From a virus (Duplodnaviria; Caudoviricetes): a DNA stretch of 64,000 nucleotides. The notes under the pieces were generated by a model. It ran no database searches. It worked only from the letters and a program-made list of their open reading frames with translations, and had not been told where the DNA came from. Both the position numbers and the translations under genes were made by a program. Positions within the stretch are counted from its first letter, which is position 1. Each line of letters opens with the position of its first letter. This document shows positions 9,773 to 17,511 of the stretch, piece by piece. Location of the stretch: IMG/VR virus record IMGVR_UViG_2547132424_000002, one strand, 5' to 3'.

Positions 9773-10040
9773 TCTGTCCACACGCGAGCAGATCCGCGCC
9801 GATGCGATCGAGCGGATCGCGCGCAAGATGTTCGAGATTGACCCCAGGGAACGCGAACCGTTCGATTCCGCATACCTGCCTCCCGAAGTGCGCGATCACT
9901 ACCGCAAGTACGCGGGCGTATTCGTCGATGCGCTCGGCGATCTCCTGCCCACCGCCATGGAGGGCCGCTTCATCGGTCGCGGCCTGGCCCGGCGTACCCG
10001 GTACGTGACCGACTGGCGAGAGCCGGAGGTGCCCGAGTGA
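9765..10040 (+). CDS. Hypothetical protein
   Basis: 91 aa coupled ORF. Confidence 0.6.
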   Translation: MPDLSTREQIRADAIERIARKMFEIDPREREPFDSAYLPPEVRDHYRKYAGVFVDALGDLLPTAMEGRFIGRGLARRTRYVTDWREPEVPE

Positions 10041-10591
10041 CCATCCAAGACCTCTGCGCTATCTGCCAGCACGGCGCCACGCACCACGCCAACGGCCTGC
10101 TCCTGTGCCCTGAGCACGTGAAGTCGCTGGGCGCCGACCAGCCCCGCGCGGTGCGCCGCGCGGCCGGCTATCACGGTGAACGCGCACGCCGGCTGCCTGA
10201 CCGGATGAAACTGTTCGTGGACGACGAACGCCCGGCACCGCCCGACTGGATGCTGGTCAAAACCCTCCCCGCGGCCCTCGCGGTGCTGAACGGGTTGCGC
10301 CTGTCCGGGTACGGGCTGCTGGCGATCTCGCTCGATCACGACCTGTCCACCCGGATCCAGGACTACCAGGAGGACCACACATCACGGCCGATCGTGCTGT
10401 GGATGTGCGAGAACGACTGGTGGCCCACCGAGGTGTACGTGCACACGTCGAACCCGGCTGGGGAGGAATGGCTGACCGGAATGGTCCGCCGCTACGCCCC
10501 GCCGGGCACGCTCTGCGGGTACGGCTCCAACTTCTGGGCCACCTGCCCTATCGACCCTGTCGAACGCAACGTCATACGGAAGTTCCGATGA
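10037..10591 (+). CDS. Cyclic-phosphate-processing receiver (REC-like) domain protein with short N-terminal Cys/His motif
   Basis: KLFVDDERPAP, ISLDHDL and VHTSNPAG motifs. Confidence 0.8.
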   Translation: MTIQDLCAICQHGATHHANGLLLCPEHVKSLGADQPRAVRRAAGYHGERARRLPDRMKLFVDDERPAPPDWMLVKTLPAALAVLNGLRLSGYGLLAISLDHDLSTRIQDYQEDHTSRPIVLWMCENDWWPTEVYVHTSNPAGEEWLTGMVRRYAPPGTLCGYGSNFWATCPIDPVERNVIRKFR

Positions 10592-12614: not shown

Positions 12615-12976
12615 GTTCAGCAATCACCGACGCGTTCCTCGCCGAGTACGCGCGCGTCTCACCGGAAGGTCGGCTCGATGTGATCGGCGGCCACACCACC
12701 GGCTGGCACACCAATGCCGGGCCCGGCTTACGGCTGGCGGCGGTCTTGTTCCTCACGCCCGACGCGGTCGCTCGGTGGCGCAAGCGCAGTGTCCAGCTGC
12801 GGACGGTAGTGACCTGCCCGGACGGAACCACCCTCGACCACGCCGATCGGATTGACCGCGGTCACCGGTTCATCGTGGCCCCGTTCGATCTGAGCCCCGC
12901 CCAGCACGGCACGTATATCGTGCGCGTCCAGCTCGCCGACGACACCGTCGATCTGCCGTTGGAGGTCAAGCCGTGA
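12611..12976 (+). CDS. Hypothetical beta-sandwich protein
   Basis: AFLAEYARVSPEGRLDVIGG; coupled. Confidence 0.65.
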   Translation: MSSAITDAFLAEYARVSPEGRLDVIGGHTTGWHTNAGPGLRLAAVLFLTPDAVARWRKRSVQLRTVVTCPDGTTLDHADRIDRGHRFIVAPFDLSPAQHGTYIVRVQLADDTVDLPLEVKP

Positions 12977-13081
12977 GCGTGGCCCCCGGACTGTTTGTCG
13001 CGGCCGGAGTCCGGCTGCTCGGCCAGGCCGTGAAACGCCGGTGTGAAATCAGTTCGGGGGCAGCGTCGATGATCCGCTACA

Positions 13082-13140
13082 GTGTCGGCACTTCCGGTGC
13101 GGAGATCCGAGGTTCCTTCACTTTTGGTTGAAACCGACAC
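13082..13140 (+). ncRNA. Candidate small structured RNA in the Y RNA cluster
   Basis: GTGTCGG/CCGACAC closing stem; inner TTCA/TGAA hairpin; TTGGTTGAAA shared with the element at 13364. Confidence 0.4.
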
Positions 13141-13182
13141 CTCGGGCACTTATTTCTCGGGAGCACAACTTCAGAGTGTGGT

Positions 13183-13319
13183 GATCGCCCGGTGTGTTGG
13201 AACTGGGGTTACTTCTTGCAGAGAAACGCGGGTTCGAATCCCGTCGGCGGCGACTGGTGTCGTCGTCGTGGCTGAGCGGCCTAAGGCACTTCCTCGGACC
13301 GTTTTTTCTCGGGCGATTC
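13183..13319 (+). ncRNA. yrlA: YrlA-type Y RNA (circularly permuted tRNA mimic)
   Basis: Closing stem GATCGCCCG/CGGGCGATT; T arm GCGGG-TTCGAAT-CCCGT (13228-13244); 10-bp acceptor-like stem closed by a TGGT loop (13245-13268); D arm TGGCTGAGCGGCCTAAGGCA (13269-13288); directly upstream of Ro60. Confidence 0.85.
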
Positions 13320-13339
13320 AGCACCTCGTGTGAGGGCCT

Positions 13340-13412
13340 GGTGCGTGGGCGGTGGATACTTCCTTGGTTGAAATCCCTTCGGGGACTGCGGGTTCGAGCC
13401 CCGCGTGTGCCA
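13340..13412 (+). ncRNA. Degenerate tRNA-like RNA (UGG anticodon-like loop)
   Basis: GU-rich 7-bp acceptor stem, weak D arm, TTC-CTTGGTT-GAA loop, TCCC-TTCG-GGGA variable arm, perfect T arm GCGGG-TTCGAGC-CCCGC. Confidence 0.6.
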
Positions 13413-13480
13413 TCGCCGATCTTTCTCAGGCTCTTCACACCACACTCTGGACACGTGCACCCCCTGACCAAGGGGACAGC

Positions 13481-15043
13481 ATGTCCAAGTTCAATACCGG
13501 CACCACCCGTCCCGTCGCGCACGGGCCGATCCGGACCGACACCACCGCCACCGGCACCACCTTCGAAGGTGCGCCCGGCTACGCGCGTGACGCGCAGTCT
13601 GAACTTTTCCTTCTCGCGGTGACGAACATGGTCGGCGAGGACACCTTCTACGAGCAGGCCAGCGACCGCGACAACCGGTTCGCTACCCTCGTCCGCCAGG
13701 TCGCGCTCACCGACTTCGACTGGCTCACCCGGTTCGCGCATTGGCTGCGCACCGAGGCCAACATGCGGTCCGCGCCGATCGTGCTCGCCGCCGAGGCCGC
13801 GAAGGCGCGTCTCGATGCAGGGGAATCCGGCGGCCGCGACATCATCAAGACGGTGCTGCAGCGCGCCGACGAGCCCGGCGAGATGCTGTCCTACTGGCAC
13901 ACCCACTACGGGCGGAAGTTGCCGAAGCCGGTCAAGCGTGGCATCGCCGACGCAGCCCGGCGCCTATACCGCGAGCGCAGCTACCTCAAGTGGGACAGCG
14001 ACACCCGCGCCATCCGGTTCGCTGACGTCATCCAGCTGACCCACCCCGATCCGGACGGCGCGCAGGCCATCGACGACCTGTACCACTATGTCATCGGCCG
14101 CCGGATCGGTGTCGAGCATCTCTCCATCCCGGACACCCTGGCGACCCTGCGCGCCAACGCCGAGTTCAAGCGCCGCACGGGTGAAGACATCGACCGGATG
14201 GCCGCCGACGGCAGCCTGGAGCAGGTGCTCGCCGACGCAGGCATGACGTGGGAGGCACTGTCGGCGTTCGGTGCCTGGACCGCGGCGCGGTGGGAGGCGA
14301 TGATCCCGTCCATGGGGTACATGGCTCTCCTGCGAAACTTGCGGAACTTCGACCAGGCAGGTGTGTCCGATGTGGTCGCGGCGACGGTCGCGGCGCGCCT
14401 GTCCGACCCGGACGAGGTGGCGCGGTCGCGGCAGTTGCCGATGCGGTTCCTGTCCGCTTACCGGGCAGCGCCGTCCCTGCGGTGGTCCTATCCGCTGGAG
14501 CAGGCGCTCGACGCATCGCTGGCGAATGTGCCGGAGCTGCAGGGCCGCACGCTGATCATGATCGACACCTCGGGTTCGATGCGCTCGGCGTTCAGCAAGG
14601 ACGGAACGCTGATGCGGTGGGATGCCGCGGTGGTGTTCGGGCTGGCTCTCGCCCGCCGCTGCCAGACCGCCGATGTGGTGTCGTACTCGAACGACGGGAT
14701 CCGGTTCCAGCTCGAGCCGGGCGAATCGTTGCTACGTTCGATCGAACGGTGGAAGACCGGCGGCTACTTCATCGGCGGGGGAACCAACACCGCCGGTGTC
14801 ACGCAGGCCGCGTACGACCGCCACGACCGCGTCGTCATCCTCACCGACGAGCAGGCGTCTGGGCGCGATCCGGGCGCGGTCATCCCGAAGACGGTTCCGC
14901 TGTACACCTGGAACCTCGCCGGACATCGGCTGGGACACACCGGTGGCGCACCGAACCGGCACGCCTTCGGCGGACTGTCAGATGCCGCGTTCAAGATGAT
15001 CCCCCTCCTCGAGCGGGGCCGTGATGCGGAGTGGCCGTTCTGA
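13481..15043 (+). CDS. rsr: Ro60/Rsr RNA-binding protein (TROVE + vWA)
   Basis: ELFLLAVTNMVGEDTFYE, MRSAP, MGYMALLRNLRN, vWA MIDTSGSM, GGGTN, VILTDEQ; ATG after AAGGGG RBS. Confidence 0.95.
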   Translation: MSKFNTGTTRPVAHGPIRTDTTATGTTFEGAPGYARDAQSELFLLAVTNMVGEDTFYEQASDRDNRFATLVRQVALTDFDWLTRFAHWLRTEANMRSAPIVLAAEAAKARLDAGESGGRDIIKTVLQRADEPGEMLSYWHTHYGRKLPKPVKRGIADAARRLYRERSYLKWDSDTRAIRFADVIQLTHPDPDGAQAIDDLYHYVIGRRIGVEHLSIPDTLATLRANAEFKRRTGEDIDRMAADGSLEQVLADAGMTWEALSAFGAWTAARWEAMIPSMGYMALLRNLRNFDQAGVSDVVAATVAARLSDPDEVARSRQLPMRFLSAYRAAPSLRWSYPLEQALDASLANVPELQGRTLIMIDTSGSMRSAFSKDGTLMRWDAAVVFGLALARRCQTADVVSYSNDGIRFQLEPGESLLRSIERWKTGGYFIGGGTNTAGVTQAAYDRHDRVVILTDEQASGRDPGAVIPKTVPLYTWNLAGHRLGHTGGAPNRHAFGGLSDAAFKMIPLLERGRDAEWPF

Positions 15044-16221
15044 TGCCGGTGACACAGTACGGCGAGAAGTTGCTGTCGTGGGCGGTCGAGTTCGACGGCG
15101 CCACGATCGAGCAGGCACGCCAGACCGCGAGTATGCCGTTCGTGGCCCCGCACGTCGCGCTCATGCCCGACGCGCACAGCGGGCGCGGCGCCGCGGTGGG
15201 AACCGTCATCCCCACCGTCGGCGCCGTGATCCCTGCGGCGGTCGGTGTCGATGTCGGCTGCGGGATGGCCGGGGTCGAGACCCGCTACACCGCAGCCGAT
15301 ATCGCCGGGAAGGACCTCGCGCTGCTGCGGGAGGCAATTGAGAAGGCCATCCCGCTCAGTCCCGGCAACTACAACGACCGGATCGGCCGTGACCATACCG
15401 CGGAGCGGATCACCGAGTTGGAGGAGCTCGCGGCCCGCAACGGTGTCGAGCTGACGCATTCGCCGAAGTGGCGCGAGCAGCTCGGATCACTCGGGGGCGG
15501 CAATCATTTCATCGAGTTGTGCCTCGACGAACGCGATCACGTCTGGCTGTTCCTGCACTCGGGGTCCCGCGGTGTCGGGAACAAGATCGCCCAACGGCAT
15601 ATCAAGATCGCGCAGAAGCTGTGCAAGCAGTGGTGGATCGATCTGCCCAGCCCAGACCTCGCGTACCTCGTCGAGGGCACACCTGAGTTCACCAGCTACA
15701 TCAAGGAACTCGCGTGGGCCCAGAAGTTCGCCGCCCTCAACCGGGCGGACATGCTCGACCGGTTCGCGACCGAGTTCGCGCGCTGGCTCGGCACCGACGA
15801 TCACGGCGAGGTCGACCGCATAATTTCGCACCACAATTACACGCGTCGTGAGCGACACATGGGCCGGGACGTGTGGCTCACCCGCAAGGGCGCCGTCGAC
15901 GCGCACGCCGGTGTCCGGTCGATGATCCCGGGCAGCATGGGCACCTCCTCGTTCGTCGTCGAGGGCAAGGGCTGTGTGCCCGCGCTGTGCTCGGCGCCGC
16001 ACGGCGCCGGTCGTCGCATGTCGCGCACCGAGGCGAAGAAGCGGTTCACCGCCGAGGACCTCGCGGCGCGGATGCAGGGCATCGAGTACCGGCATGGTGA
16101 GGAATGGGTCGATGAAATCCCCGACGCCTACAAACCGATCACCGAGGTGATGGCCGCTGCGGAGCCGCTGGTTTCGGTACTGCACCAGCTACGCCAATTG
16201 CTAAATGTGAAGGGTACATAG
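15043..16221 (+). CDS. rtcB: RtcB RNA ligase
   Basis: MPDAHSG, VGVDVGCG, GSLGGGNHFIE, HSGSRG, HHNY, RKGA, PGSMG, HGAGR, DEIPDAYK. Confidence 0.97.
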   Translation: MPVTQYGEKLLSWAVEFDGATIEQARQTASMPFVAPHVALMPDAHSGRGAAVGTVIPTVGAVIPAAVGVDVGCGMAGVETRYTAADIAGKDLALLREAIEKAIPLSPGNYNDRIGRDHTAERITELEELAARNGVELTHSPKWREQLGSLGGGNHFIELCLDERDHVWLFLHSGSRGVGNKIAQRHIKIAQKLCKQWWIDLPSPDLAYLVEGTPEFTSYIKELAWAQKFAALNRADMLDRFATEFARWLGTDDHGEVDRIISHHNYTRRERHMGRDVWLTRKGAVDAHAGVRSMIPGSMGTSSFVVEGKGCVPALCSAPHGAGRRMSRTEAKKRFTAEDLAARMQGIEYRHGEEWVDEIPDAYKPITEVMAAAEPLVSVLHQLRQLLNVKGT

Positions 16222-16225
16222 GCGA

Positions 16226-16912
16226 ATGGACACCTTGCTCCTTGAGGGCGTGGTCGGGTCGACCGCCTACGGACTCGACCACGCGGACAGCGACACCGAC
16301 TACGCCGGTATCTACCTCGAGCCCACCGAGCGGCTACTCGGTCTGCATCCGCCGAGCCGGGAGCGCGCGACCCGTAAGGGCCGTGGCGGGGCGGACGCGA
16401 CCTATCACGAGCTCGGCAAGTCGATGTCGCTGATGCTGTCGTGCAACCCGACCGCGACGGAGATCTTGTGGCTCGACAATTACACCCTCACAACCGAATT
16501 CGGTGAGGAACTGATCGGGCTGCGGCAGGGTTTCCTGTCCGCGAAACGAGTCCGTGACGCGTTCTTCGGGTACGCGACCAGCCAGTTCCACCGGTTGATC
16601 GACCGCGGCCGTTTCCAGGGGTCGCTGGAGACCCGCAGAGAGAAGCACGCCCGGCACACGATGCGGCTGTTGTGGCAGGGCTACGAGCTGTACACCACCG
16701 GTGTGCTGCCGATCCGGGTGCCGGATCCGGGACCGTATTTCGAGTTCGGCCAACGCATCGTGGGCGATCCCGAGGCGAAGGCCGCGCAGGAGCTGATCAC
16801 CCACTACCAGCTGAAGTTCGACGCTGCCCGCACCGTGCTGCCCGATGAGCCGGACGAGGCTCCGCTCGAGGATTTCCTGCAGCGGGTCCGGAAAGCGAAC
16901 ATGGCCGCATGA
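16226..16912 (+). CDS. rlaP: Pol-beta superfamily nucleotidyltransferase, RlaP (RNA ligase-associated) family
   Basis: VGSTAYGLDHADSDTDYAGIY (GS..DxD), HELGK, CNPTATEILW, KHARHTMRLL. Confidence 0.88.
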   Translation: MDTLLLEGVVGSTAYGLDHADSDTDYAGIYLEPTERLLGLHPPSRERATRKGRGGADATYHELGKSMSLMLSCNPTATEILWLDNYTLTTEFGEELIGLRQGFLSAKRVRDAFFGYATSQFHRLIDRGRFQGSLETRREKHARHTMRLLWQGYELYTTGVLPIRVPDPGPYFEFGQRIVGDPEAKAAQELITHYQLKFDAARTVLPDEPDEAPLEDFLQRVRKANMAA

Positions 16913-17511
16913 CGAACGTCTGGTTCACCTCGGACCTGCACATCGGTCATCGCATGGTCGCCGAACTCCGCGGCTTCACCGACCCGGCCGACCACGATGA
17001 CGCTCTGGCCGCGAACTGGGACCGGGTCGTGCGGCCGGATCATCAGGTGTGGGTGCTCGGCGATATCTCGGTGGGCGGAAAGGCCAACGAGATCCGTGCA
17101 CTGGAATGGATCGCGGCCCGGCCCGGGACGAAACACCTCGTGGCCGGCAACCACGACTCGTGTCACCCGTACCGCAGCCAGGCGCACAAATGGCAGCGCA
17201 TCTACCTCGATGCGGCGTTCGCGTCGGTGCAGCAGTCCGCGGTCCGGAAGATCGCCGGGCAGCGGGTGTTACTGTCGCACTTCCCGTTCCAGGGCAGCGA
17301 GGACGGCGACCACACCGCAGAGAATCGGTTCGAGGAATGGCGGCTCCCCCGCATCGGCGAGAACACGTCACGGTGGCTCCTGCACGGGCACACGCACTCC
17401 CGAGACCCGGGCCACGGCCCGCAGCTGCATGTCGGTCTCGACGCGCATGCTCTCGCACCGGTGCCGCTGGATTGGGTCGAGTACATGATCGAGAGCGACC
17501 CGCCGTTCTGA
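16909..17511 (+). CDS. Calcineurin-like metallophosphoesterase
   Basis: FTSDLHIGH, VLGD, AGNHD, LSHFP, LHGHTH. Confidence 0.93.
   Translation: MTNVWFTSDLHIGHRMVAELRGFTDPADHDDALAANWDRVVRPDHQVWVLGDISVGGKANEIRALEWIAARPGTKHLVAGNHDSCHPYRSQAHKWQRIYLDAAFASVQQSAVRKIAGQRVLLSHFPFQGSEDGDHTAENRFEEWRLPRIGENTSRWLLHGHTHSRDPGHGPQLHVGLDAHALAPVPLDWVEYMIESDPPF

Follow-up and report, generated by a model that had tools for sequence, protein, structure and literature searches.

Three predicted tandem Y RNAs in the leader of a prophage operon encoding Ro60 and RtcB

A previous survey counted 355 YrlA-like RNAs across 276 genomes, described as many as five RNAs linked to Rsr in D. radiodurans and already reported multiple YrlA-like sequences per locus (Chen et al. 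2014, PMC4201824). In M. smegmatis, YrlA and the T-arm-bearing YrlB are found upstream of rsr, are both bound by Rsr and are cut from one precursor; in this species, RNase P cleaves YrlA, and CCA is added to it (PMC4201824). The crystal structure of YrlA has also been described (bioRxiv 10.1101/312249). Moreover, Ro60 of a Thermus phage was shown experimentally to bind two upstream Y-like RNAs as well as PNPase (PMC12135203). Finally, RtcB repairs cleaved tRNAs (PMC7790460).

The window of this study is a 64-kb stretch of DNA within an 8.35-Mb actinomycete chromosome. It is a prophage that encodes a large terminase, a portal protein, a major head protein, a 1865-aa tape measure protein and minor tail proteins. 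The leader of its RNA-repair operon, a non-coding stretch of 504 nt directly before rsr (12977-13480), carries three head-to-tail RNA units, referred to here as U1, U2 and U3. Our results make it highly probable that these units are three tandem paralogous Y RNAs, which are probably made on one precursor with or ahead of rsr. This reading is based on membership by sequence and structure, on covariation and on genomic linkage, whereas transcription, processing, Ro60 binding and the choice of partners are inferred.

Similar to described YrlA RNAs, U2 shares the strand of rsr, which starts 163 nt downstream of it, and its parts follow the YrlA order, which is 5' strand of the Ro module, YUAC, variable loop, T arm, closed acceptor-like hairpin, D arm and 3' strand. 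Different from YrlA, however, the loop of the Ro module of U2 is GUGUGUU instead of a GNCGAA-like sequence, its acceptor-like hairpin has 10 bp and its D arm resembles those of class II tRNAs (UGGCUGAGCGGCCUAAGGCAC). U2 also differs from typical YrlA in that it is phage-encoded and that rtcB adjoins, which is rare in the clade (1 of 80 loci). By description rather than by sequence, U3 resembles YrlB of M. smegmatis, as both have a T arm (a possible one in YrlB), and U1 resembles YrlB of S. Typhimurium and Yrn2 of D. radiodurans, which have long hairpins and small loops. Common to these RNAs and the units of the window is that extra Rsr-type RNAs are found beside YrlA, upstream of rsr and on one precursor, the last of which is presumed for the window. 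Different from these RNAs, the hairpin unit is first and the T-arm unit is last in the window.

The Thermus phage phiLo also encodes Ro60 with Y-like RNAs, Yrl1 and Yrl2, directly upstream (PMC12135203). It differs from the window in having two units instead of three, no reported tRNA-like module, a host of another phylum and no rtcB-RlaP-phosphoesterase operon. The rsr-yrlBA-rtcBA operon of Salmonella likewise unites genes for Ro60, Y RNAs and RtcB and is linked to damage of tRNAs (PMC7790460). In Salmonella, however, the Y RNAs are downstream of rsr, RtcA is encoded and control is by RtcR and sigma-54, whereas the operon of the window starts with the Y RNAs and encodes RlaP and a metallophosphoesterase in place of RtcA.

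The prophage operon and its leader

Directly 3' of the leader, the genes for Ro60, RtcB, an RlaP-type nucleotidyltransferase and a metallophosphoesterase are tightly coupled (Table 1). Ro60 of the window has 285 relatives in actinomycete genomes, of which the closest, from Nocardia, are 71% identical. Among 80 actinomycete loci encoding Ro60 relatives, which served as the comparison set of this study, rtcB was found near rsr in only one (L072), where it is on the opposite strand. When the related actinomycete loci (L006-L085) were compared with the window (15031-17511), RlaP was found in none of them. The operon that combines Ro60 and RtcB with RlaP and the phosphoesterase is specific to this prophage, and the direct fusion with rtcB-RlaP-phosphoesterase is the uncommon part of the locus. 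Further upstream in the prophage are genes for an Rv2179c-like 3'-5' exoribonuclease and a cyclic-phosphate-processing receiver (cREC_REC) protein (1751-2308 and 10037-10591), which may be further RNA-repair accessories. In addition, a tRNA-Gly(tcc) gene was identified with ARAGORN on the minus strand 63 nt beyond the right end of the window (G000:C1:6577546-6577619) and is a candidate attachment site of the prophage.

Table 1. Positions in the window of the predicted RNA units, candidate expression signals and operon genes.
Feature	Position	Strand	Basis
Candidate -10 element TACAGT for the Y-RNA/rsr transcript	13078..13083	+	Position matches TANNNT in relatives
U1, putative short hairpin-type Y RNA, no T arm	13084..13166	+	Covariance model R1
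U2, putative YrlA-type Y RNA	13174..13318	+	Covariance model R3
U3, putative T-arm-only Y RNA	13323..13435	+	Covariance model R2
Predicted hairpin burying the rsr RBS (AAGGGGA) and the ATG at 13481	13444..13490	+	MFE -20.5 kcal/mol, z -2.64
rsr (Ro60 orthologue; TROVE and vWA domains)	13481..15043	+	Pfam TROVE E 2e-16, VWA_2 E 4e-4
rtcB, RNA ligase	15031..16221	+	Pfam RtcB E 3.6e-111
RlaP-type Pol-beta nucleotidyltransferase of RNA-repair operons	16226..16912	+	Pfam RlaP E 1.5e-23
Calcineurin-like metallophosphoesterase	16909..17511	+	Pfam Metallophos_2 E 1.9e-6

In most of 29 related loci, a TANNNT hexamer was found 10-17 nt 5' of the closing stem of the leading unit, which is of the H type. 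As TACAGT precedes U1 where most related arrays have this hexamer, one transcript with a start near 13090 is suggested. A scan of the region for E. coli-type promoters identified none. A terminator scan returned two terminator-like sites, a number within chance, of which one falls inside the Ro module of U2.

The hairpin at 13444-13490 was equalled by 3 of 200 shuffled sequences, and hairpins of a G-run with a C-run were also found just 5' of rsr in related loci L006, L013, L019 and L029. As modelled, this hairpin may provide translational control of Ro60. Such a hairpin occluding the RBS and the start codon, the lack of a terminator between U3 and rsr and the spacing of 4-7 nt between units on one strand would also fit a structured 5' leader that acts in cis to control the expression of rsr-rtcB without giving rise to stable trans-acting RNAs. 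We regard this alternative as unlikely. In related loci the unit types vary in copy number and order and are found up to about 900 nt from rsr, one YrlA of phage Atuin is downstream of Ro, and the homologous arrangement of M. smegmatis yields discrete Rsr-bound RNAs (PMC4201824). Moreover, cis and trans roles are not mutually exclusive.

Three units before rsr

The whole window was searched on both strands with three covariance models, R1, R2 and R3, which were built from other genomes with the window left out. Each model was matched over its full length on the + strand, and no comparable match was found elsewhere in the 64 kb. U1 scored 55.8 bits against R1 (28 other loci; E 1.1e-10; model positions 1-80), U2 scored 59.8 bits against R3 (34 YrlA units from other loci; E 2.6e-13; model positions 1-149) and U3 scored 61.6 bits against R2 (13 units from other loci; E 1.1e-12; model positions 1-113), all E-values being rough because of a short calibration. 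The units together span 13084-13435, within 4 kb of rsr and on its strand, with gaps of 7 nt between U1 and U2 and 4 nt between U2 and U3. Thus, the three structured units that the first-pass annotation had noticed before Ro60 are present, but the borders it gave for the outer two (13082-13140 and 13340-13412) are replaced by those in Table 1. Its description of the middle unit as YrlA-type agrees with the full-length match to R3, and its views that more than one Ro60-type RNA is encoded and that the element is phage-borne are also supported.

U1 has a closing stem at 13091-13097/13157-13163, an internal loop of UGCGGAG and a second stem at 13106-13112/13140-13146, above which its apical part consists of UUCCUUC and UUGGUUGAAA. 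The two stems were also found in the single-sequence MFE structure. Similar to short hairpin Y RNAs, U1 combines a Ro module with a short apical element, has no tRNA-like arms and is found beside a YrlA.

U2 begins with a AACUUCAGA-like 5' leader, which is followed by a closing stem (13185-13191/13310-13316), the GUGUGUU loop and a second stem (13205-13208/13292-13295 plus 13199-13200/13299-13300). UUACUUC at 13209-13215 leads into a variable hairpin at 13213-13225, in which the previously noted TTC-TTGCAGA-GAA is present ahead of the T arm. The T arm at 13228-13244, GCGGG-UUCGAAU-CCCGU, has a 5-bp stem and a UUCRANY loop. The closed acceptor-like hairpin of 10 bp (13245-13254/13259-13268) is found between the T arm and the D arm, as in YrlA, and the D arm, GCUG-AGCGGCCUA-AGGC, was located at about 13270-13288 in a constrained fold. 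The score of U2 is low for the family, of which typical members reach 100-149 bits, and the phage units are thus divergent.

U3 has a closing stem at 13332-13340/13427-13435, a loop of GUGCGUG and a second stem at 13348-13355/13410-13417, followed by AUACUUC. Its distal part contains UGG inside CUUGGUU at 13363-13369, a UUCG hairpin (CCC-UUCG-GGG) at 13374-13385 and a T arm at 13388-13404, GCGGG-UUCGAGC-CCCGC, of which the loop again conforms to UUCRANY. Neither an acceptor hairpin nor a D arm was found in U3. As both of these parts are missing from U1 and U3, neither of them is a YrlA proper.

Common to all three units of the window are the closing stem, the second stem, an internal loop of GGUGYG and a YUAC/UUC motif. 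The conserved YUAY with which the variable loop begins is UUAC in U2, AUAC in U3 and the variant UUCC in U1, and this motif was invariant or nearly so in the alignments of the three classes described below. The five copies of ACTTC and the repeated TTGGTTGAAA that had been listed earlier were confirmed from the sequence. TTGGTTGAAA was found twice in the 64 kb, at 13124 and 13364, compared with 0.03 expected by chance. The ACTTC at 13090 is the 5' strand of the closing stem of U1, that at 13168 belongs to the conserved AACUUCA leader before YrlA units, those at 13211 and 13358 are the invariant UACUUC and that at 13288 starts the 3' strand of the second stem of U2. In the window (13153-13176, 13304-13328 and 13420-13436) as well as in related loci, the units end in UUUCUCGGG or UUUCUCAGG, and a conserved AACUUCAGA spacer is found before YrlA units; these sequences together could be a processing signal.

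Unit classes and covariation in relatives

A DNA search in 60 relatives returned only 3 weak matches, and the comparison was therefore moved to Ro60-anchored loci. A blastn search of the leader against 50,697 phage records returned no match. T-arm motifs occurred one to four times within 700 nt 5' of rsr in nearly all of the 80 loci. The units of these relatives share a plan, in which a closing stem with the consensus CUCCCGG / UCGGGAG is formed from the unit's own ends and is followed by an internal loop with a 5' strand of UGCG(A/C)AG, a second stem of GGCNNCGG / CCGNNGCC, an almost invariant (G)GYUACUUC and then a distal module. The distal modules divide the units into three classes, for which members were picked by eye from regex matches. 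Class H has only a small apical element and class T has a hairpin and a T arm. Class TD has a variable hairpin, a T arm, a closed acceptor-like hairpin and a D arm, as in the layout published for YrlA (PMC4201824). The shared 5' module could not be captured with a pattern of fixed spacing, as its spacing varies among units.

The Y-RNA stems of all three classes were supported by strong covariation. For H units, both stems were recovered by RNAalifold, with compensatory changes in 9 of the 11 consensus pairs. For TD units, the closing, second, T, acceptor and D helices were all recovered by RNAalifold, and 23 of 30 pairs were compensatory. For the 14 sequences of class T, the closing stem was 92% paired and the second stem 90% paired in the Y-RNA structure, 13 pairs had changed on both sides and 0 of 500 shuffles reached the observed pairing. 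As the relatives share ancestry, all of these counts overstate independence. Low pairing of T arms in the MAFFT alignments was an artefact, as MAFFT mis-registers T arms with GCGG or GCGGG stems; the covariance-model alignments placed them correctly. The literal published Ro motif, GNCGAAN0-1G / CGAA, was absent from U1 (UGCGGAG), U2 (UGUGUUG) and U3 (UGCGUGG). The Ro loop of the units aligns to the actinomycete consensus GGUGCG(A/C)AGG, and the stems around it are present in U1-U3 and covary in relatives. The single-sequence folding energies of the units were no better than those of shuffled sequences (z -0.3 to -1.6); the same was true for the MFE of the whole region (z -1.34), in which the tRNA-like fold was not recovered.

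The first-pass annotation had described U3 as a full cloverleaf with a GU-rich acceptor stem. The CTTGGTT, the hairpin and the T arm of that description are present, but the cloverleaf is not. The 5' strand of the proposed acceptor helix, GGUGCGU/GUGUGCC, is the invariant GGUGCG of the Ro module. Among the 14 homologues the cloverleaf reading was rejected, as 0 pairs of this acceptor helix and none of the 3-bp anticodon stem had compensatory changes and 139 of 500 shuffles paired as well. The covariation check proposed earlier thus favored the Y-RNA stems over the cloverleaf stems. [quoted passage not shown] Such a gene is very improbable. ARAGORN, one of the tools named for this check, found 0 tRNA genes in the window, the Rfam tRNA score on U2 is well below the gathering score of 29 and no tRNA was found by Rfam on U3. 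Moreover, the acceptor-like helix of U2 is a closed hairpin of 10 bp.

No family of Rfam 15 was matched at the gathering score in the window or on six related loci with canonical YrlA, and membership of the units therefore rests on the models built in this study. At E<=10, the Rfam matches over 12900-13600 were at chance level, with the tRNA match and a Vault match (14.3 bits) among them.

Model R3 had 190 matches at E<=1e-5, a threshold subject to the rough calibration, from 85 sources. Every match was on the strand of rsr, and nearly every one was at most 1 kb upstream of it. Arrays of 2-6 units before rsr were found in most of the 80 actinomycete loci and also in lytic actinophages. The nearest relative by DNA search, L003, has an H-TD-TD array, and five or six tandem units of mixed classes precede rsr in two Micromonospora loci (L023 1575-2458 and L046 1524-2404). 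Among lytic phages, GiJojo and Neville each have four units before Ro, and Atuin has several, of which one YrlA follows Ro as mentioned above. The host has a second rsr (L087, G000:C1:7062210-7066814) that is 61% identical and has its own three units at 974-1124, 1273-1395 and 1401-1455. Thus, an array of three units is not unusual, and this kind of Y RNA is already known in bacteria and phages. The earlier statement that the array goes beyond a model with one or two Y RNAs was overstated, as 2-6 units are the norm here and up to five are known in D. radiodurans.

Several annotations overlap these units. In the first unit of the host's second locus, a false tRNA-Lys(ctt) was called by ARAGORN. 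In Streptomyces phage GiJojo (L088), an annotated tRNA-Arg(cct) at 2269-2343 is inside a YrlA match at 2253-2412 (68 bits), and in Gordonia phage Neville the small hypothetical CDSs gp88-gp90 overlie the Y-RNA units (L089 1995-2480). Both the tRNA-Arg(cct) and gp88-gp90 look like annotation errors. In addition, partial covariance-model matches were found inside both rsr coding sequences (that of the window at 14756-14799 and that of the second rsr locus of the host, L087, at 2809-2871; CGGCUACUUC...ACACCG), where the in-frame codons read T-G-G-Y-F-I-G-G-G-T-N-T-A-G. Although common to both copies, these matches are probably a coding coincidence.

Similar to gp88-gp90 of Neville, the leader of the window could be read as ORFs of 83 and 142 aa, in which case it would encode small proteins. 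This interpretation was rejected and we give it practically no credence, as a third-position GC filter kept no ORF here and conservation tracks base-paired helices with compensatory changes rather than codons.

Anticodon-like loops and possible roles of the units

The units had been proposed to be a panel of non-chargeable anticodon mimics, with a Cys-like GCA loop in U2 and a Pro-like UGG loop in U3, that decoy or sense host anticodon nucleases. U2 and U3 do allow loops of 7 nt to be drawn, RtcB of the operon is a repair enzyme for cleaved tRNAs (PMC7790460), and in some relatives the same region forms anticodon-like loops and YrlAs are called by ARAGORN as tRNAs with assorted anticodons. These calls fit the proposed descent of YrlA from a tRNA dimer (bioRxiv 10.1101/312249), but anticodon-like loops are not general in the family. 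The loops are located within what Chen et al. termed the variable arm, where hairpin loops ranged from 3 to 11 nt across 137 T-arm-bearing units and only 18 of 112 (16%) had 7 nt. Among these 18 loops, position 2 was U in 16 and position 6 was a purine in 17. Thus, loops of this kind do not serve to distinguish the units.

Further features of the units also argue against anticodon mimicry. The stems of the drawn loops have only 3 bp, and U1 has no such loop. In U2, the 7-nt GCA loop is in competition with the best local fold, a stem of 5 bp with a GCA triloop, which is more stable. The host tRNA-Cys loop matched the U2 loop at 5 of 7 positions and the host tRNA-Pro(UGG) loop matched the U3 loop at 4 of 7, while the 3-bp stems were unrelated. 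In U3, the would-be position 37 is U. It had also been suggested that loop identity be compared across related phages; in the relatives, UGG was nearly invariant in class T instead of varied. It was found 0-3 nt after ACUUC in 13 of 14 T-class units, compared with 2 of 29 H units and 1 of 35 TD units (3 of 64 in the other classes), although these counts are not independent, as 8 of the 14 T-class units are from Micromonospora. Given the variable-region loops, the triloop fold of U2, the class-conserved UGG of U3 and the poor match to host loops, the panel of anticodon mimics was rejected; nothing found here favors a decoy or sensor of this kind, and we consider it quite unlikely.

We read the UGG of U3 as a class-specific structural or recognition element and not as a variable "Pro" anticodon. 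No earlier description of the conserved UGG of the T-arm-only class was found. It is conceivable, though rather doubtful at present, that the T-arm-only Y RNAs are a distinct conserved class in which UGG replaces G18-G19 of the D loop and docks on the T loop, forming an elbow without a D arm. If so, a phage with hairpin, full-elbow and minimal-elbow Y RNAs could direct Ro60 to different partners or substrates, and these Y RNAs might also serve as a decoy elbow or a sensor for enzymes of the host that target tRNAs, with RtcB repairing the damage at the same time.

For the three units as Y RNAs, a mechanism can be proposed by analogy with the characterized systems. Each unit has the same putative Ro60-docking module, in which a closing stem of the unit's own ends is followed by an internal loop with the 5' strand GGUG(C/U)G, the second stem and (Y/R)UAC-UUC (UUCC-UUC in U1), and differs in its distal "effector" module. 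The effector is a small apical element only in U1 and a T arm with a UUCG hairpin but no D arm in U3, while that of U2 is a circularly permuted tRNA elbow made of the T arm, the closed acceptor-like hairpin and the class-II-like D arm. The units may be cut from one precursor, and each may bind to the outer surface of the ring of the phage Ro60 via its closing stem, internal loop and second stem. The bound Y RNA would gate the Ro60 cavity and tether the ring to a partner, for example PNPase or an enzyme that binds tRNA elbows. Meanwhile, RtcB, RlaP and the phosphoesterase would heal and seal broken RNAs. The substrates might be damaged structured RNAs, plausibly tRNAs cut in phage-host conflict.

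Reading the units as Y RNAs corrects a tempting misreading, as it replaces a cloverleaf tRNA or a panel of anticodon mimics with an experimentally grounded RNA family. It also flags annotation errors, namely false tRNA calls by ARAGORN within YrlAs and, in phage genomes, small CDSs that overlie Y RNAs. The three structural classes form a natural series, with no elbow, a T arm only and a full elbow, respectively, and such arrays are the rule upstream of rsr in the loci and actinophages examined. This series could help to test the role of the tRNA-like module of Y RNAs. Moreover, the prophage Ro60 with three divergent Y RNAs and RtcB-RlaP-phosphoesterase, on the one hand, and the second rsr of the host with its three Y RNAs, on the other, are a tractable pair with which to ask if the Ro60 and Y-RNA sets of phage and host are kept separate.
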